A DNA stretch of 30,618 bases. It comes from a virus. Its lineage: Duplodnaviria > Heunggongvirae > Uroviricota > Caudoviricetes. The number at the start of each line of letters is the position of its first letter. Position 1 is the first letter of the stretch. The notes below the pieces were generated by a model, which saw nothing but the letters and a program-made list of their open reading frames with translations, had not been told where the DNA came from and did not search any database. Shown in pieces: positions 1 to 23,130 of the stretch. A program made the translations under genes and the position numbers. The stretch lies in IMG/VR virus record IMGVR_UViG_2563366903_000024, one strand, 5' to 3'.

Positions 1-759
1 GTAATAAACCACCTGAAGCAGCACACGACGGCGTTCACGCTGAAGCCATTCGTTCTGCTGTCGATCCCATGACTGATACTCTTCCCATGCACTCATCAAC
101 GGACTGGGCTGGCCTTCAGTAACCATGGTATCGACAAAACCACGCCAGTCATCAATGGCATAATCGATAACCTGAGCCATTCCCGGAAATGTGGCTTTTG
201 CCTCATCGGTATCCATCCAGCGGCGGCGCATCAGCCAGCGGCAGTCACTTAAATCAGCCTCCCGGCTGAGCCAGTCCCAGAACACTTCATTCCGGCTGAC
301 AGTAGACACCTTAAACTCAGGCCCGAACGGATCGCTGTTCCGTCTGACCTCCACCCAGCTGAGCCCCGCTTTGATTTGTTCCGCATAGGCATCAGAACGG
401 GCTTTATTCATATTTCCAAGGCGGCAAGCATCGGCAAATTCAGCATTAATAGCTTCAGCCAGTTTTTCTGTTTCATCATCAGGATCATCTGATATCACCA
501 ACAGATCAGTCCGCGTTTTGGCCTCCATACCCAGAACACCATCAACGGTAGGCGCGATGAGGTTATGGATGGTCATCGGCTGACCGCGATCTTTCAACAC
601 CTGGAGAACTTCCGGTGGCAACTGGTCACCATCGTAATACGCACAGGCCTTGTTTGCGGCATCGCGCCATTTAGGCTGACTGTCAATATCAGAACAAAGC
701 GCCTGTAACTGGCGCTGAGAAAAACGCGGCGTGGCTCCGTTGTCGTTTTTCGTCGCCAT
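1..759 (-). CDS. Putative phage portal protein, N-terminal part (gene runs off the window edge)
   Basis: Minus-strand ATG at 759-757 opens a frame (MATKNDNGATPRFSQRQLQALCSDIDSQPKWRD...) that stays open to position 1. It lies directly after the terminase large subunit, the usual terS-terL-portal order. Identity rests on position only. Confidence 0.5.
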   Translation of the reverse strand, partial: MATKNDNGATPRFSQRQLQALCSDIDSQPKWRDAANKACAYYDGDQLPPEVLQVLKDRGQPMTIHNLIAPTVDGVLGMEAKTRTDLLVISDDPDDETEKLAEAINAEFADACRLGNMNKARSDAYAEQIKAGLSWVEVRRNSDPFGPEFKVSTVSRNEVFWDWLSREADLSDCRWLMRRRWMDTDEAKATFPGMAQVIDYAIDDWRGFVDTMVTEGQPSPLMSAWEEYQSWDRQQNEWLQRERRRVLLQVVYY

Positions 760-779
760 GGTATTAGTTTCATTTTTCA

Positions 780-2486
780 TCAGTGAGCCATCCAGTGTGT
801 GGTTCTGCGTTTATCCGTTTTCTGTTTTACCCTCACCGGCATTCTGGCGCGCATCTCCTGGGCAATCATGTAGCTCATAAGCTGATCATCAAAACAGCCT
901 TCCTGTGCATTCATGGAGCCTTTCGCGTCATAAACGTAGGTGTTCATTTCTGATAATGTGCCCGACCAGCGGATCCCCGACAGGCCGTTATTCAGCAGCG
1001 TTTTCATTCCCTCTGTCAGGACCGGTTTACTCTGGCGGGTTGTCAGCCAGCCAAGACGGGGCGTATCGTCGTCATATGCCTGGTCAAGGTGCTGTTCGTT
1101 GTAGATATAACGCGTCGGATAGAGTTCCCTGAGTTTCAGGATAACGGCATGTCCGTGATTGTTACGCTCCGGCCCCACAAACGCATTGTTGTACATACGG
1201 CAGACCTGCGCAATGAGATGAGCGAAAAGCTCCGCATCGAGATGACCAAACCAGTGAGCCACCTGCTCACCATTACTGCATCTGATGATATCCAGCGATG
1301 AGCGGTCTCCGTGCTCCAGCCCCTCAGCGGTATCCGCTCCGCATACATACTCTTCATCCGGATCCGGCAGCTCCCAGACCAGCAGATAATTCATCAGCGT
1401 CCGGTGCTGTTCGGCTTTATTCCCGTCACGCAGAGACTGCGCTTTGGTCTTCGTTCCTGTAACCGGTTCAATGTCATAAACAATCAGCGGTGGCGAACAG
1501 AATGACTCTGCCTGCAGCGTGCTTTCCGCACTGAACACCCGTCGTCCTGACGTCAGAAACGCCTCCTGTGGCGTTGAGGGAAATTCCTGCTTCATTTCCT
1601 CACGCTGTTCAGTTTCCTTGCAGATGTACCAGTGTTTCTGCTCATCGGTAAGCGTGATGTTCATTGCTTTTTCAACCGCAGAAAAATACGCTGTTTTTTC
1701 CCGTGACAGCTTAAGTCCGCTTTCCGGCACTCTGGCGCTGTATTTGAGATCCTGCCACCAGGCGTAAAAATGGAATTTATAATCCTGTGGCGTCAGCGCC
1801 AGTCCTGATGCAGTGATTTCCTGTGCCCGGTTACTCATCTCGTAAAAATCGCCACCCACACCTTCAGCAGTGGATTCATCAAAAATAATGCACTCATCAG
1901 AGACGGCATTAAGTGTACCGGTTCGCAGTTCTTTCGCCTTAGCCGGATATTTTGCGCAAATTTTGCCGTGCTCTGAGATATGCAGGCGCTGCACCGTACC
2001 TGAACGGAATGAGGTTGCCACCTGGATACTCGAGCCGTGACCAAACAGGATATAGCCACCGCTGGCTCCGCTACGACGTTCAACGATGGTGAATGAGGCT
2101 CTCAGCCAGTCAGGAAGATGATCAAACGGTACAGCAATTTTGGTGCGGAAAATTTCACTGGCAGCCTGTTTATCCTGAGCGACAATCCCGCATTTGAGAT
2201 GCGGTATGAATAATGCCTGGTCGAGAAGATAAATATCAATGGCCGTGGAAAACCCCAGCTGGCGTGCTTTCAGGATAATATTTTTATTGTGCATGCTCCG
2301 GAACAACTGGCGCTGCGCCGGTCGCATTCTGAAGGTGACCAGCTCACCTTTTTCGTTCTGTATCTTGTAGAGATGATTGAGCCGCCACCAGGGATTGCTC
2401 AGTTTTGTCATAATGAACAGACGTTGTTCGGTCTCAGTCATTTCTGACGGTTCATCACATCGCGGTTCATTCTTCCGGAATGTCAT
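780..2486 (-). CDS. terL: Terminase large subunit
   Basis: 568-aa ORF with a terminase-type ATPase motif (ILKARQLGFSTA). SD GGGGAGA lies 4 nt before the ATG at 2486. The start overlaps the terS stop by 20 nt. Confidence 0.85.
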   Translation of the reverse strand: MTFRKNEPRCDEPSEMTETEQRLFIMTKLSNPWWRLNHLYKIQNEKGELVTFRMRPAQRQLFRSMHNKNIILKARQLGFSTAIDIYLLDQALFIPHLKCGIVAQDKQAASEIFRTKIAVPFDHLPDWLRASFTIVERRSGASGGYILFGHGSSIQVATSFRSGTVQRLHISEHGKICAKYPAKAKELRTGTLNAVSDECIIFDESTAEGVGGDFYEMSNRAQEITASGLALTPQDYKFHFYAWWQDLKYSARVPESGLKLSREKTAYFSAVEKAMNITLTDEQKHWYICKETEQREEMKQEFPSTPQEAFLTSGRRVFSAESTLQAESFCSPPLIVYDIEPVTGTKTKAQSLRDGNKAEQHRTLMNYLLVWELPDPDEEYVCGADTAEGLEHGDRSSLDIIRCSNGEQVAHWFGHLDAELFAHLIAQVCRMYNNAFVGPERNNHGHAVILKLRELYPTRYIYNEQHLDQAYDDDTPRLGWLTTRQSKPVLTEGMKTLLNNGLSGIRWSGTLSEMNTYVYDAKGSMNAQEGCFDDQLMSYMIAQEMRARMPVRVKQKTDKRRTTHWMAH

Positions 2487-3318
2487 CCAGTCTCCCCGAA
2501 TTACTCATTTCATGCAGCGATGACACGATGTCACTGACAGGCGTAACAACGCCCCGACGCTGGCTGGTCAGAATATCGGTTTCCGCTCTGAGTTTATCTC
2601 TGGCAGCGTTGATTCTTTCCCGGTCAGCACGAAGTTTTGGTGCTGTTTCCGCCAGAACGTCCAGCGTCAACAATGAGCGTTCAATTGACTCGATACGGGC
2701 AATATTCCGGTCAAGGGCCTGTTCTGCTTTGAGTATTTTGTCGTACAGGGCAACACGGGTTTCCACGTCAGCCGCCTCTTTCAGGTCGGCGAACATTTTT
2801 TTCAGTGTTCCTGTTACTGAAAGTGCGCGGGCACGGGTGAACACCAGTTCATCGAACAGCACCATATCGGACGCATCATCCATGAGGTTATCTGCCTCAA
2901 GATACTTCGCATATCCACGGTGTCTCACGGCGTGGGTGTTACGGTCGCTAAACCGGGCAACGGGGTGAGGATTGCCCGATCTGCTGTTGCGTTTCGTTTC
3001 TGCCGAATTTGCGCAGTTTTTTGCGCATTTTTCATCACTGCCATCATCGCCGTAAGACTCGTCATTACTGGACTCGTCATCAGCTCCATGCGCATTTTTT
3101 TGTGCGCTTTTTTGAGTGTCAATTTGCGCACTTTTTTGCGCATTTTTCTGCGCACTTTCCTCTGTATTTTTGGGGGAGTTTTTGCGCAGTTTTATGTACC
3201 GACGAGCCGTGCCATAGCAGATATTGTTCTGTCGACACCAGTCCTGAAGTTTTATGCCAGTTCTGGCATGTTCGCGTCGGAATGCCTGCTCCAGTTTTTT
3301 CCAGTCCAGCTTTGCCAT
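2467..3318 (-). CDS. terS: Terminase small subunit (N-terminal HTH, low-complexity QKNAQKSAQ middle)
   Basis: 283-aa ORF immediately upstream of and overlapping terL. N-terminal HTH-like segment (NICYGTARRYIKL). Assignment by position and architecture. Confidence 0.6.
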   Translation of the reverse strand: MAKLDWKKLEQAFRREHARTGIKLQDWCRQNNICYGTARRYIKLRKNSPKNTEESAQKNAQKSAQIDTQKSAQKNAHGADDESSNDESYGDDGSDEKCAKNCANSAETKRNSRSGNPHPVARFSDRNTHAVRHRGYAKYLEADNLMDDASDMVLFDELVFTRARALSVTGTLKKMFADLKEAADVETRVALYDKILKAEQALDRNIARIESIERSLLTLDVLAETAPKLRADRERINAARDKLRAETDILTSQRRGVVTPVSDIVSSLHEMSNSGRLDDIPEE

Positions 3319-3619
3319 GTCACTTTCTGACGTCCTCTGTTAAAAACTGACGCATAATGACCGCTGTGATTTTTCAGAATTCACACAGCAGCGTCTTGTT
3401 TGATTGATATTTACACAATATGGTTGTTTTATCCGGTTTCTTCCACCACCGCACCGGACAGGCGGCCATGCGGGAAAACGCTCACGTTACCTGAAAACGT
3501 GGAAAGCCCGGTATGCATCGTTTTTGATTATCCCCACACACTCGCGCAGGAGGTCCAGTGTCTGGCTGAGGTCTCTGTTAATGCGGGAATACTGCGACGA
3601 TACGGCGCATCAGCAAAAC

Positions 3620-19034: not shown

Positions 19035-20117
19035 TTACCCCCTGAAACCCGGCGGAATTTCGGTGTCCGGTTCAGAAATGTGATTCACGCAACGCAGGCT
19101 GACTGCGCCAGCCTTCGGCAGCGACCACGGATTTTCGAAATTCCTGTTCGGGCCAAAAAACGTCGATGCCTGCTGAACAAATTCAGTTCCCGCTTTCCCG
19201 GTAGCCTCCAGGTATCTTGCGTAACGCCTCACGCCATCCAGCACGACATCCGGTGACACCCCTTCGCGTAATCTGGCCCTCCAGGCATTGAACGCGGATT
19301 TCTTCGGGTTTGCCCCTGCCCGATGCGGATATTCACGCCAGACCCGTTCGAACACGTCAGGATAATCAACTCGTCCCGCAGACGGTCCCGGCATCGCCCG
19401 GGTTAACCCAATCGGCTTCCCGCTCATCGCGGAATCGGCTTCAGGCTGCTGCGGTTGGCGTTGTTGCTCCGGTTCGACGATCAGCACCTGCTGCACACAA
19501 CGCCCGGAATCTGCTTCCGGTGTCGTGCCAGCTGGTCCTGGACGTTCAGTCAGAACAGGACAAAAATCCCCCTGCGGGTCCGTGGCGATTTTTTCGCCAT
19601 GGACCAGAAGGGTTTTATCCCTTTCCTGTTCTTGTTCCTGTTCCTGTTCTTGGCTTGAAAGAGGCTCTGAAGGGGCTTCAATTTTCCGACATGATTCACG
19701 TCTGACATCCAGGTGGAAATCATCCTTATATCTATCATAAAAGGATGATAAAAAAGGATTTTCCAGCAACACGGAATATTCATTTCTTACCCCAGCACAA
19801 CGGTTATCGCCAGGTTTCAGCGATTCACCAACCTGCCATGCTGCCATTTCATGCACCCATACAACCTCAGAATCATGGTCATAGCTGCAAAAACCAGCCT
19901 CGCAAGCCATTTGAAGCCCCTTAGAAGCCCCTTCAGGATCAAGTCCGGTTTCGTGAGCAATGTACAAAACAGGCAGGTAATAAAGGCCCAGCATATTGGA
20001 ATGAGGCGAGGTCATCATATACAACGCCACTACCATACATTCCGGACCAGACTTCCTTAGTTTTCTCCCTGTTTCGCCTAACCAGAACTGAGGTGAAATT
20101 GTTGCGTAATTACGCAT
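19035..20117 (-). CDS. Replication initiation protein (O-like position; acidic linker with (QE)n; DnaT-like C-terminal region)
   Basis: 360-aa ORF between cII and the DnaC-like gene. Internal low-complexity linker (SSQEQEQEQEQERD…QQRQPQQPEAD). Assignment by position and architecture. Confidence 0.6.
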   Translation of the reverse strand: MRNYATISPQFWLGETGRKLRKSGPECMVVALYMMTSPHSNMLGLYYLPVLYIAHETGLDPEGASKGLQMACEAGFCSYDHDSEVVWVHEMAAWQVGESLKPGDNRCAGVRNEYSVLLENPFLSSFYDRYKDDFHLDVRRESCRKIEAPSEPLSSQEQEQEQEQERDKTLLVHGEKIATDPQGDFCPVLTERPGPAGTTPEADSGRCVQQVLIVEPEQQRQPQQPEADSAMSGKPIGLTRAMPGPSAGRVDYPDVFERVWREYPHRAGANPKKSAFNAWRARLREGVSPDVVLDGVRRYARYLEATGKAGTEFVQQASTFFGPNRNFENPWSLPKAGAVSLRCVNHISEPDTEIPPGFRG

Positions 20118-20370
20118 AGTCCCCTCGCATACAAGATTTACTCCATACCGCAGACGGTCCCGGTATCTCCCGGGTTAACCCAATCGGCTTCAGGCTGCTG
20201 CGGTTGGTGTGACTGCACATTGGTGTGACTGCACATCTTCACAGACGGTCCCGGTATCTCCGGGTTAACCCAATCGGCTTCAGGCTGCTGCGGTTGGTGT
20301 TGTTGCTGGCGAAATTCTTCCAGATGTGGCAGAATTATTCCCGTGTATTGCTCCATGCCCTGCCTGAATA

Positions 20371-20667
20371 TCAGATGTTCATCAGGATTTGCTCAGAACG
20401 TCCGGCCCCAACCGGACGTTTTTTATTTGCATGAACGTTAATGGCATGCTGGAAAGCCCGGCTGATCGGACTGATATCAGATGCCATCTGGAACGCGCAT
20501 AAAATCGCCGCGATGTATCGCCAGTCGGTACGACTGACCTTCGATTCATGGCAGCCAATCATCTTCGCCAGTCCCCTTTGCGTCAGAGCTGACAGGTTGA
20601 TAAGTAAATCCGTTTCAGCGCGATCGATATCGCGCTGTGACAGTTTGCTGTAACTTGTTTGTGACAT
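20371..20667 (-). CDS. cII: CII-like transcriptional activator
   Basis: 98-aa protein whose C-terminus (…NVHANKKRPVGAGRSEQILMNI) parallels lambda CII (…TNKKRPAATERSEQIQMEF). Lies downstream of cro. Confidence 0.75.
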   Translation of the reverse strand: MSQTSYSKLSQRDIDRAETDLLINLSALTQRGLAKMIGCHESKVSRTDWRYIAAILCAFQMASDISPISRAFQHAINVHANKKRPVGAGRSEQILMNI

Positions 20668-20783: not shown

Positions 20784-21008
20784 TTATTCAGCCTGGTTCG
20801 GATGAGGAAACAGGTGCGGTAAGTCCGGGCGAATTTCGTAAGCCTTAACCTGACCATTGGTGGCATTAACGATAGCGAAAACTTTTTCAGGAGAAACTTT
20901 TCCGCCTCGCAACCATTTATGAACAGCGGGCTGTGATACGCCGCAATCAGCTGCAAGTCGTTTTTGACTGCCAACAATATTCAAGGCTCGCTGAATCACT
21001 AAATTCAT
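20784..21008 (-). CDS. cro: Cro-like repressor
   Basis: 74-aa HTH protein (MNLVIQRALNIVGSQKRLAADCGVSQPAVHKWLRGG…) divergent from cI. SD AGAGGT before ATG 21008. Confidence 0.7.
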   Translation of the reverse strand: MNLVIQRALNIVGSQKRLAADCGVSQPAVHKWLRGGKVSPEKVFAIVNATNGQVKAYEIRPDLPHLFPHPNQAE

Positions 21009-21044: not shown

Positions 21045-21107
21045 ATAACATGAGTTATACACCAGGGCAATAACAATTGTTGTTTTACTTTTGATAACCG
21101 TGGTTAT
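21045..21107. promoter_or_regulatory. OR operator region (pR/pRM) with ATAAC/GTTAT inverted-repeat half-sites
   Basis: Inverted repeats ATAACatgaGTTAT (21045-21058) and ATAACCgtGGTTAT (21094-21107), plus palindrome AACAATTGTT, in the cro-cI divergent intergenic region. Confidence 0.55.
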
Positions 21108-21118
21108 AGATTACAGGT

Positions 21119-21826
21119 ATGAAAACATTCGCAGAAAGACTAAATGCCGCCATGAGTTCAGCCGGGTTGTCACAAGCACAACTTGCAGACATGGTGGGGG
21201 TATCACAACCAGCCATACAAAAGATGTCATCTGGTAAAACAACCGGATCACGTAAAATGGTCGAATTAGCCAACGCGTTAAGAGTTCGCCCTGAATGGCT
21301 AAGCTCTGGTATAGGGTCAATGAGACCACAGAGCGCAGAAGAGCCATCTAATGCTCGGGAATCATCTTTAAAAGCTATCGCCTGGGATGATCATCAAAAT
21401 GATAATGACGAATTTGTTACGCTCCCCCTTCTAAATATTTCACTTTCAGCTGGCGGAGGAAGTTGTGCATTGGAGGAGTCCGCAGAATTCTCTCTAGTTT
21501 TTAGGCGCTATTACCTGAAAAAAATGGGAGTTCCAGAAAAAGCGGCAAAGTTGGTCAGGGTTGTTGGGCAAAGCATGGAGCCAACACTCCATGATGGTGA
21601 TGTGGTGGGGGTAAACACGCAAGATACGAGCATCAGGGATGGTAAAACATATGCAATTTGCCAAGCTGATTTGTTAAGGGTAAAAACGCTCATAGCCACG
21701 CCAACATCGGTAATTATCAGATCGATAAACCGCGAAGAGTATCCTGATGAAGTAATGAACAGAGAAGAATTCTACAAAAACGTAAGAATCATAGGGCGAG
21801 TGTTCTGGTCATCACATAGCTGGTAA
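21119..21826 (+). CDS. cI: CI repressor (HTH plus LexA-like S24 peptidase domain)
   Basis: 235-aa protein with N-terminal HTH (LSQAQLADMVGVSQPAIQKM) and C-terminal autocleavage region (…GQSMEPTLHDGDVVGV…). Confidence 0.9.
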   Translation: MKTFAERLNAAMSSAGLSQAQLADMVGVSQPAIQKMSSGKTTGSRKMVELANALRVRPEWLSSGIGSMRPQSAEEPSNARESSLKAIAWDDHQNDNDEFVTLPLLNISLSAGGGSCALEESAEFSLVFRRYYLKKMGVPEKAAKLVRVVGQSMEPTLHDGDVVGVNTQDTSIRDGKTYAICQADLLRVKTLIATPTSVIIRSINREEYPDEVMNREEFYKNVRIIGRVFWSSHSW

Positions 21827-21950
21827 TCAGACTCCAACTGAACTTTTGCTATAAGAACACTCACGAAGAACGGCCTTTTATTGTGCTCAATACCACCGAT
21901 GGTAAACCATTCGCCAAGTAGCCAATTCATAAAATGCCATTTCTAAATCC

Positions 21951-21976
21951 CCCGGCTCCAGTGCCGGGTTTTATTT
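21951..21976 (+). terminator. Rho-independent terminator downstream of cI
   Basis: CCCGGC-tccagt-GCCGGG stem-loop followed by TTTTATTT. Confidence 0.6.
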
Positions 21977-21978
21977 AC

Positions 21979-22200
21979 TTAATTACACAGTCGCATATCC
22001 TGAAGTAACACATCTATAGCTAACTTCACAGCGAGATCATCCAATTCATCATGGTGAAGCACTCGGATCATTCCCGCAATAGCATCTGCTGAAATAGCTT
22101 CCCCAGTAGCAATAACCTCAAGCAACGACACCCCTAGAATTTCGACTACCCGCTGGTGCAACACACCAAATTCCCCTTCGATTAACATGCAATCACCCAT
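21979..22200 (-). CDS. Hypothetical 73-aa protein between cI and pL/N, antisense to cI
   Basis: ATG at 22200 preceded by SD GGGGGAAAGG (MGDCMLIEGEFGVLHQRVVEILGVSLLEVIATGEAISADAIAGMIRVLHHDELDD…). No family recognised. Confidence 0.45.
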   Translation of the reverse strand: MGDCMLIEGEFGVLHQRVVEILGVSLLEVIATGEAISADAIAGMIRVLHHDELDDLAVKLAIDVLLQDMRLCN

Positions 22201-22261
22201 AACAATCAGCCTTTCCCCCTTGAAAATATCACGCGGATACCACAAAAAATAAAATATTTTT

Positions 22262-22337
22262 GTTATCAGTCATTTATAACGTTTTTCATAAAATGATAAA
22301 TATAGTTATTGCACAACCAGATAACTTAGGTTATCTT
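22262..22337 (+). promoter_or_regulatory. OL/pL candidate: operator half-sites overlapping a sigma70-like promoter directed toward N
   Basis: ATAACttagGTTAT (22321-22334), same half-sites as OR. TTGCAC (22309-22314), 17-nt spacer, TATCTT (22332-22337). Confidence 0.4.
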
Positions 22338-22383
22338 CAATTCAACAGCAGGACGCTGGAAGCCAAACGGAACAGATTGGCCG

Positions 22384-22423
22384 GCTCTTTAACATTGATG
22401 GACTCTCAACCTAACCGTTGAGA
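22384..22423 (+). promoter_or_regulatory. nutL candidate (boxA plus boxB hairpin) upstream of N
   Basis: GCTCTTTAACATTG (boxA-like) followed by hairpin TCTCAAC-ctaacc-GTTGAGA, about 110 nt before the N start. Confidence 0.55.
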
Positions 22424-22533
22424 CCAAAATCTAAGTGGTTTTGGGGATGACGCGAATTTCAGTTGCAAGGCCGCGATCGAGAAGAAAAACACCTCGACGC
22501 GTCATACACCAAAGCCACTTAAAGGAGACCATC

Positions 22534-22773
22534 ATGGTAACCATAATCTGGAAAGAATCCAAAGGTACGGCAAAAAGCCGCTATAAAGCTCGCAGGGAAG
22601 AACTTATTGCAGAGCGGCGCAGTAGTGAAAGACTGACACGGAAGATTGCGCTAAAGATCTCTGGTTGCGTCGGAGCAGACAAAGCAGTATCACTCGGAAG
22701 CCTTCGCTGCAAGAAGGCAGAAGAAGTCGAGAGTAAACAGAACCGTATTTACTACCGCAATACCACGCAGTGA
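22534..22773 (+). CDS. N: N antiterminator (phage 21 N type)
   Basis: 79-aa protein MVTIIWKESKGTAKSRYKARREELIAERRSSERLTRKIALKISGC… resembling phage 21 N. SD AAGGAGA before the ATG; nutL upstream. Confidence 0.8.
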   Translation: MVTIIWKESKGTAKSRYKARREELIAERRSSERLTRKIALKISGCVGADKAVSLGSLRCKKAEEVESKQNRIYYRNTTQ

Positions 22774-22845: not shown

Positions 22846-23130
22846 ATGATGAAGTTCAAATTGAACGATGAAGTTAAATGGTCAAGCTCATCAAACGGTG
22901 TAACGAAGGTAAAAATCGGGTTTATCGTCGAGGTGATTCCTCCTGGTGTCAACGTAAAAAAATTCGAACTAGGCCGTCTGCTAGATGCACCTGGCCTTCC
23001 GAGGAAAGAAGAGAGCTATATAGTTTGTGTAGGTTCAAGACCCGGATCTCGTGCCAAGCCAAAATATTACTGGCCGCGAGTTAATAACCTGCGTCGATTA
23101 CAACAAAAAACTTGCGCCCTTAAAACTTGA
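22846..23130 (+). CDS. Hypothetical protein (94 aa), early-left operon
   Basis: ATG at 22846 with GAGG upstream (MMKFKLNDEVKWSSSSNGVTKVKIGFIVEV…). Confidence 0.4.
   Translation: MMKFKLNDEVKWSSSSNGVTKVKIGFIVEVIPPGVNVKKFELGRLLDAPGLPRKEESYIVCVGSRPGSRAKPKYYWPRVNNLRRLQQKTCALKT

Follow-up and report, generated by a model that had tools for sequence, protein, structure and literature searches.

The window analyzed here is the whole stretch of 30,618 nucleotides of the IMG/VR virus record IMGVR_UViG_2563366903_000024 (Caudoviricetes), a lambdoid prophage whose plus strand corresponds to the leftward direction of lambda. On its minus strand, at positions 21979-22200, between the cI-type repressor gene and the OL/pL region, lies a small open reading frame (ORF) which, judged from comparative sequence data, is a genuine gene. 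We suggest, with a confidence that we would put at about even, that it is an allelic form of a cassette which encodes a small protein and keeps a constant place on the side of OL facing cI, this protein being made by the prophage and acting by binding to another protein. According to this reading, the cassette would be set apart from the variable rex-type slot and shared by many lambdoid prophages of Enterobacterales; its own promoter (AT-rich block plus extended -10) would fire away from pL and clear of the operators, and its far end would be marked by a tImm-type hairpin acting in both directions, at which the cI operon is terminated as well. Its product, about 69 amino acids (aa) long, very acidic and made up of three helices, would be a distant relative of DUF2767 and a more distant one of YcgZ/YmgA/AriR and, probably made continuously from the prophage, would most likely bind and modulate a conserved partner, as connector proteins do, this partner being more likely a regulator of the host than a phage protein specific to one immunity type.

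The cI-OL-pL interval is among the most studied DNA in biology, and a conserved small gene is found in it in many phages related to lambda, though not in lambda itself. The gene sequence is not new, being already present in PHROG as a hypothetical protein. In the literature searched we did not find its fixed position bounding a cargo hotspot, a two-allele cassette whose flanks persist in lambda, lysogen expression of one of the alleles or a YmgB-like fold, nor any paper mentioning DUF2767; the literature on DUF2767, on small ORFs of lambdoid immunity regions and on the epsilon34 genome yielded no description of the small gene. Several phage records carry it without annotation, and the epsilon34 genome paper does likewise.

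A conserved small gene bordering the cargo slot

The ORF runs from an ATG at 22200 to a TAA at 21979-21981 and encodes 73 aa. Its location, strand and length are those described by the sequence-only reading from which this analysis started: it lies opposite to cI, between the cI terminator and OL/pL, with a Shine-Dalgarno-like GGGGGAAAGG (22210-22219, minus strand, read from the sequence) upstream of the ATG, and its stop codon stands 10 nt from the hairpin at 21951-21968, the terminator after cI. Placing its start "just inside" the OL/pL region was loose wording, the operator matches being at least 76 bp from the ATG. Three in-frame starts are available. The TTG at 22245 (88 aa) is unlikely to be used, because it lies upstream of the predicted -10. 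The ATG at 22200 (73 aa), with AAAGG 9 nt ahead of it, is the start chosen in the GenBank record of phage 06-3462; the ATG at 22188 (69 aa), with GGTGAT immediately 5' of it, is the one chosen by RefSeq/PGAP (WP_024166114.1), and gives a product whose N-terminus is as long as in the other family members. The start would thus be either of the two ATGs, the 69-aa form appearing to be the better family fit. The product, of 73 or 69 aa, is acidic (isoelectric point (pI) 4.3, net charge about -9) and is predicted to form three helices.

The length of the ORF is in itself unremarkable, spurious ORFs of 60-130 aa occurring by the dozen in the window. What raises it above chance is its conservation, on which the sequence-only reading had made its own proposal depend: the protein belongs to the phrog_3946 family, it has homologues in Salmonella and Klebsiella phages, and the ratio of nonsynonymous to synonymous substitution rates (dN/dS) is 0.11. 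The match to the phrog_3946 hidden Markov model covers profile positions 2-67 of 67 (E 5.6e-30, 104 bits). No function is assigned to this family, and the identical 69-aa product that PGAP annotates in E. coli genomes (WP_024166114.1) is named a hypothetical protein. A word-indexed search with the window protein retrieved near-identical E. coli sequences and one 66%-identical clade only; tblastn against phages revealed relatives at 32-49% identity in Salmonella P22-like and Klebsiella phages, and a search seeded with the Salmonella protein returned 440 clusters, all the source names listed being Enterobacterales genera. A profile search of 1.84 billion representative proteins gave 61 clusters (50% identity), which with few exceptions are about 67 aa long. 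As far as these searches indicate, the family is narrow. Its members are very acidic (pI 4.2-4.3, net charge -9 to -11), and the pairwise dN/dS (Nei-Gojobori; 45 distinct coding sequences, pairs with dS 0.05-1.5 kept) has a median of 0.11 and is below 0.5 in 99.7% of 630 pairs. Searches of Pfam, NCBIfam, PADLOC and PDB sequences with the ORF or the family gave no usable match, and PADLOC detected 0 families for the small protein at E up to 10.

A variable site was observed inside the ORF, where the GGGGTG at 22129-22134 (minus strand) corresponds to an uninterrupted run of G7-G8 in other alleles. The Shiga toxin (Stx) phages PA28 and 06-3462 have G7 at this site, in frame, with Val-Ser replaced by Gly-Ala; E. 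coli 2014C-3338 has one G more, which results in a frameshift, and the gene is left unannotated. Frameshifted or truncated products (P0004-P0007) are recorded from other assemblies. This variation could reflect on/off switching driven by slippage, gene decay or sequencing error.

The position of the gene was surveyed in 87 loci harboring a family member, 80 of them from IMG/VR. The order N(-)/ORF(+)/cI(-), with the small gene on the strand opposite to both of its neighbors, was found in 66; among the remaining 21, cI only was recognized in 8, N only in 2 and neither in 11, these incomplete loci being due to contig ends or to regulators too divergent for the seed proteins, and none (0) of them contradicts the arrangement. 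The gene context is identical in the 66%-identical relative (P0009), and in five annotated phages (MG40, S149, S107 and two Klebsiella phages) the gene adjoins N/pL, is divergent from N and lies on the strand opposite to cI (S149 being identical to ST104 in the immunity region). What varies is the distance to cI, which amounts to 153 bp in the window and to 67-2126 bp in relatives. In this interval MG40 and S107 have BstA (PADLOC E 1e-124 and 1e-99), S149 has a P63C-domain protein and one Klebsiella phage a ParA-like ATPase. A single cluster of the small protein (at least 90% identity, 49 loci) is found together with cI of 7 types and N of 3 types, the cargo gap varying between 408 and 2126 bp; no co-variation of the small gene with cI specificity, N type or cargo was observed.

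The interval between cI and pL is the one in which lambda carries rexAB, HK022 its nun and 933W its stk as cargo. Known cargo such as lambda rexAB and BTP1 bstA is co-transcribed with cI from pRM, lies on the cI strand and differs among phages (PMC7067206). The small gene shares with rexAB and BstA the lambdoid map interval and a likely expression from the prophage; it differs from them in being on the other strand, with a predicted promoter of its own, in being conserved and in standing beside the cargo. Concerning the traits of rex-type genes, it is convergent with cI, with a terminator between the two, and not co-transcribed with it; it is constant beside different cargo, or none, instead of being part of a variable, mosaic content; and it matches no defence-system model of PADLOC. 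On this comparative evidence the small gene is a fixture bordering the cargo slot and not rex-type cargo. The "rexAB-equivalent position" attributed to it by the sequence-only reading had therefore to be abandoned, since it is on the cI side of the small gene that the variable cargo is found, and the true slot of the window (21827-21950) is empty. For annotation, this means that the pL-side border of the defence-cargo hotspot downstream of cI would be the small-gene cassette and not OL.

Flanks, alleles and expression of the cassette

The candidate promoter of the small gene consists of a predicted extended -10, TGATATTTT (22223-22231, minus strand), an element with a constant location in almost every locus of the family, whatever the immunity type, and of an AT-rich block (…ATTTTATTTTTTG; 22244-22262, minus strand) in the -35/UP position, which corresponds to the conserved ATTTATTTTT motif abutting OL3 in relatives and in lambda. 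The start site deduced from the -10 would be near 22216. The upstream frame common to the immunity types is (A/G)ATTTATTTTT, about 15-18 nt and then a TGn-extended -10 of the TGn + (T/C/G)AT(A/G)CT type (variants TGCCATACT, TGCGATACT, TGTTATGCT and TGATATGCT), a CAAAAAAC stretch being usually present before the ribosome-binding site; the spacing in the window is ATTTTATTTTTTG, 13 nt, TGATATTTT. No OL operator match overlaps the predicted promoter: the operators are at least 45 bp upstream of the predicted -10, and the nearest match (22276-22289, two mismatches) is centered about 66 bp upstream of the predicted start. No LexA box, as might be expected for an antirepressor-type control, was noticed by eye near the promoter. 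In the IMG/VR loci L008-L023, the few upstream substitutions cluster in or beside the weak OL3 match (window 22262-22295), as in ATGAAAAACGTTATAAATGACTGATAAC vs ATGGAAAGCGTTATAAATGGTTGATAAC, the promoter block and the 5' untranslated region (5'UTR) being invariant.

At the other end, the G+C-rich hairpin CCCGGC-N6-GCCGGG (21951-21968; terminator scan and RNA folding) is common to the two convergent genes. On the plus strand, with TTTTATTT next to it, it forms a strong intrinsic terminator for cI; on the minus strand it is followed by a poor U-tract only and, judged from this, it is a leaky terminator at best for the small gene. The hairpin (AAAACCCGGC..GCCGGG) ends every version of the cassette, being invariant in the window, lambda, MG40 and a Klebsiella phage, and by its sequence it is homologous to lambda tImm.

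In lambda (NC_001416 35652-35825, L088) both flanks are found, ATATGAATTTATTTTTT at 16 bp from OL3 and TGAGGCAAAGAAAACCCGGCGCTGAGGCCGGG at tImm, so that the OL3-tImm interval has the ATGAATTTATTTTTT block and the TGAGGCAAAGAAAACCCGGCGC..GCCGGG hairpin of the family; it differs in that only about 110 bp lie between the flanks, a stretch that contains no ORF and does not resemble the gene to a significant degree. The homology of the lambda flanks to those of the relatives gave a score of 43-45, vs a shuffle maximum of 24. The idea that the ~110-bp middle of lambda might be a decayed copy of the 5'UTR and start codon of the window was discarded, the local alignment being no better than shuffles. 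An Intestinirhabdus alba prophage (L092) has a lambda-type OL3 (TATCACCGCAAATGGTTA, 17/18 bases) and an intact DUF2767 gene between the same flanks. From these comparisons it would appear that lambda either lost the small gene or never had it.

The same flanks may embed a different gene. The phages BTP1, ST160 and SE1 match MG40 over 83 bp only (promoter, 5'UTR and first codons; 94-95% identity), and downstream of these BTP1 carries, between n and bstA, a different small ORF, BTP1_037/STMMW_03522, annotated as 56 aa. Read from the conserved GTG, it encodes 69 aa with a full-length match to PF10965 (DUF2767; E 4.5e-34, 116.8 bits); the deposited gene (L089, LT714109 27867-28076) starts at an internal ATG, 39 nt downstream of that GTG, a start that is probably wrong. 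In Yersinia, Serratia, Brenneria, Citrobacter, Klebsiella and others, DUF2767 genes are likewise situated at this position, between the same flanks. The two types share the site, the strand, the AT-rich block with the TGn -10, the hairpin and a length of about 67-69 aa; they differ in that the proteins are too distant for HMMER, only 1/30 family members matching PF10965 (E 0.032), and the window protein itself gives no match at E up to 10 (gathering threshold 20.7 bits). The phrog_3946 family and DUF2767 can be aligned by hhalign collinearly over positions 12-43 (probability 25-41%, E 3e-4 to 8e-4), with a score of 22.3 vs a mean of 10.2 and a maximum of 17.1 for column shuffles. It is probable that the window-type and DUF2767-type genes are divergent alleles of one ancestral gene. 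The genes ydaG/ydaF of the E. coli Rac prophage were also considered as DUF2767 genes at the same position and were rejected, because both lie on the strand of racR and ydaF belongs to DUF1391.

Transcription data are available for the BTP1 allele. In the D23580 lysogen STMMW_03522 is expressed at 16.8-53 transcripts per million (TPM) in all 17 conditions (Owen et al. 2020, PMC7067206, Table S5). In the same table, the values of STMMW_03522, N and cro are, respectively, 18, 4.0 and 4.5 TPM in late stationary phase, 53, 6.1 and 11 in InSPI2 medium, and 52, 10 and 8 in macrophages. Because STMMW_03522 stays at 18-53 TPM while N and cro drop to 4-11, the expression of this allele is uncoupled from pL and pR, which agrees with a promoter that works in the lysogen. 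By analogy, the window allele is probably also made in the lysogen.

Predicted fold, possible action and rival explanations

An AlphaFold prediction of the small protein with 18 similar sequences was poor (predicted local distance difference test (pLDDT) 60), and an alignment of 30 sequences gave a usable model with pLDDT 86.8 and a predicted template-modelling score of 0.72, the helices spanning residues 3-28, 34-44 and 52-62. The best Foldseek match of this model was 2oxl (probability 0.96; all others at most 0.2), and the predicted model has the three-helix fold of YmgB; a search of viral structures in BFVD gave no match. The comparison of the family with a profile of YmgA, YcgZ and AriR by hhalign yielded a probability of 65% (E 6e-5, score 28.5), 200 column shuffles having a mean of 9.0 and a maximum of 18.3 and the reversed profile a score of 11.2; with YcgZ alone the probability was 55%. 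With respect to YcgZ/YmgA/AriR (YmgB; PF10798, PDB 2OXL), the small protein is 15-20 residues shorter at the N-terminus; R74, through which YmgB contacts SpoT, aligns (the alignment being tentative) to a conserved Val in the family and is not retained; and ycgZ-ymgA-ariR belong to a four-gene operon controlled by BluR, whereas the phage gene stands alone in an immunity region. On the predicted model, then, the family has a YmgB-like fold, and it may plausibly be a remote relative of the connector proteins.

Since no enzymatic, DNA-binding or membrane features were seen in the small protein, protein binding is, by inference, its most likely mode of action. The lack of co-variation with cI, N or cargo favors a host target, or a conserved phage one, over an immunity-specific one. 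A bolder idea, which we consider unlikely on the analogies available, is that a lysogen-expressed member of the YcgZ/YmgA/AriR superfamily might link the prophage to SpoT/(p)ppGpp or Rcs signalling. YmgB and YmgA activate the Rcs phosphorelay (PMC3509220), and YmgB, a homodimer, binds SpoT directly through the TGS/helical domains of the latter, with a rise of ppGpp (PMC10704370). The chromosomal operon of the connector proteins is a neighbor of prophage e14 and has been proposed to be of phage-associated origin (PMC3509220). If this idea were correct, lysogen physiology (acid tolerance, biofilm, capsule) or the induction threshold might be altered, and the chromosomal ycgZ-ymgA-ariR genes beside e14 would descend from a phage cassette. 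A functional link to YmgB/AriR would offer prophages, including those of PA28-type Shiga-toxin phages, a route to host stress responses and to their own induction.

Several observations weigh against a prophage-made cassette acting by protein binding. As to the gene, some E. coli alleles are frameshifted at the G-run, tblastn found no match to the gene in P22, and lambda has no ORF; because lambda and apparently P22 lack it and some E. coli alleles are frameshifted, the small gene is, on these sequences, dispensable. As to its expression, the evidence comes from a different allele, in Salmonella, and from population RNA-seq of a prophage with frequent spontaneous induction; the -10 (TATTTT) and the -35 region of the window are weak, and a strict TTGACA/TATAAT scan calls no promoter for the small gene. 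Some of the AT-rich block may function for pL and not for the small gene, given that the block persists in lambda, where there is no ORF. As to the fold, the PF10798 (YmgB) model matches 0/30 family members at E up to 10; this silence is weak evidence because that model is insensitive, giving only 24.9 bits for YcgZ and no match for YmgA. The hhalign probability is 1-4% for the family with AriR (orthologues) alone and 0.9% for DUF2767 with the connector profile, so the link to AriR is at most remote, and small three-helix folds recur by convergence.

Different explanations of the same locus can be set against this preferred one. That the ORF might be a chance antisense frame without a product would fit the abundance of chance ORFs of similar length in the window, the lack of an annotation in several phage records and the frameshifts of some alleles, but it is effectively refuted by the conserved family, the dN/dS of 0.11 and the confident predicted fold, and its probability is practically negligible. 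It is also quite unlikely that the gene is devoted to superinfection exclusion or defence, like rexAB, Nun or BstA in function even if small: the gene borders a known hotspot for such cargo (PMC7067206), with BstA next door, and is probably expressed in lysogens, but it finds no match in PADLOC, it is constant, whether the cargo beside it is of one kind or another or missing, it is on the strand opposite to the cI operon that expresses the known cargo, and its product has no membrane, nuclease or NTPase features. The sequence-only reading had suggested a possible coupling to the operators. In that version, an early gene would be repressed by cI through OL in the lysogen and turned on together with pL at induction or infection, with a lytic role, for instance as a host takeover or anti-defence factor. 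The gene does lie within about 100 bp of OL and diverges from pL, a polymerase sitting on the predicted promoter would leave no more than a few bp free before the weak OL3 match, an effect of OL-OR looping by cI is conceivable as well, and phage proteins that are small and acidic often inhibit proteins of the host. Against this, no operator overlaps the predicted -35/-10; the promoter block is kept across at least 7 cI types, whose operators differ, and is thus not immunity-specific; and the BTP1 allele, independent of N and cro, is still expressed when these drop. We regard this version as improbable. Of the sequence-only reading, then, the genuine and conserved gene at its place stands; the equivalence to rexAB does not, and the coupling to the operators is not supported.

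Two further explanations invoke the phage itself. The protein might bind a conserved phage component, such as the S24 C-terminal domain of cI, or affect the interaction of cI with RecA, or bind the N/Nus machinery, and so tune the stability or induction of the prophage, akin to RexA, which has recently been reported to bias the lambda switch (bioRxiv 10.1101/2021.04.19.439022; PMC11077077). This precedent, the constant embedding of the gene in the immunity region and an acidic, helical protein built for binding speak in its favor; on the other side, the family is also found beside repressors of about 127 aa that match the cro/HTH seeds only and not the cI seeds (L080-L082), it occurs also where no N was detected, and no co-variation with cI or N type was seen, so that such a role as a modulator of the switch has a low probability. 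Lower still, and very small in our estimate, is the probability that the function is exerted in cis, with transcription from the promoter, or the DNA elements themselves, serving pL, OL or the cI terminator and the peptide being secondary. Possible mechanisms include supercoiling between the divergent promoters, protein binding at the AT-rich block and read-through interference. Both the AT-rich block and the hairpin persist in lambda, which has no ORF between them, and the lambda block is reportedly an integration host factor (IHF)/UP region, which, as Giladi and co-workers are said to have found in 1990 and 1992, binds IHF and stimulates pL; the ORFs of the BTP1 type and of the window type are very different between conserved flanks. 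However, an action in cis is difficult to reconcile with the strong purifying selection on the amino acids (dN/dS 0.11), with the confidently predicted fold and with a length and a helix pattern conserved even between the two allele types.

Layout of the immunity region

The immunity region of the window is 99.5% identical to that of the Stx phages PA28 and 06-3462 and of a set of Stx1a phages, and 401 bp of the locus are found identically in 50/5426 complete E. coli genomes. Its minus strand carries a cII-like gene (20371-20667) and cro (20784-21008), which are followed by OR, with three sites matching ATAACnnnnGTTAT at 21045, 21070 and 21094 (pattern search), and by the cI-type repressor gene on the plus strand (21119-21826; Pfam HTH_3 and Peptidase_S24, phrog_4), called repressor in PA28/06-3462 and transcribed convergently with the small gene. 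The empty "rex slot" between cI and the common hairpin is 124 bp long. Beyond the small gene, the pattern search located OL operator matches to ATAACnnnnGTTAT at 22321-22334 (0 mismatches), 22296-22309 (1) and 22276-22289 (2, the weak OL3). A candidate pL, TTGCAC-17 nt-TATCTT (22309-22337, plus strand), read from the sequence by analogy with lambda, is divergent from the small gene and overlaps the two best OL operators; it was not picked up by the strict promoter scan. It is followed on the plus strand by a nutL-like region (22384-22423), also read from the sequence, with a boxA-like GCTCTTTAACA and a hairpin at 22404-22423, the stretch homologous to this boxA carrying a Nut boxA annotation in mEpX1, HK629 and phage 21. 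The first gene of the pL operon encodes an N-type antiterminator (22534-22773, plus strand; phrog_271, E 5.9e-21), called N in PA28. No RNA family was detected by Rfam across 21700-22700.

Signs of mosaicism were observed in the early-left operon. At 22757, within the N gene, the window has one extra T (CGCAAT-ACC) vs E. coli DETEC-S792 (CGCAA-ACC), as a result of which N ends at 79 aa in the window vs 101 aa in DETEC-S792. The PA28-type N (112 aa) is fully divergent from about 22730 on, which marks a mosaic junction inside N. The gene after N (22849-23130, 93 aa from the ATG at 22849) matches phrog_11941 (E 3.9e-45), whose function is not assigned in PHROG; it is missing from the PA28 arrangement, another mark of this mosaicism.

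On the other side of the region, a replication-initiator-like ORF (19035-20117) contains a (QE)n run deriving from a TTCCTG hexamer repeat at 19623-19649. Just upstream of it, at 20138-20356, there are a 16-bp direct repeat (20204-20236) and repeated units coding for the peptide QQPEAD…PGPS; these repeats may be iterons of the replication origin.

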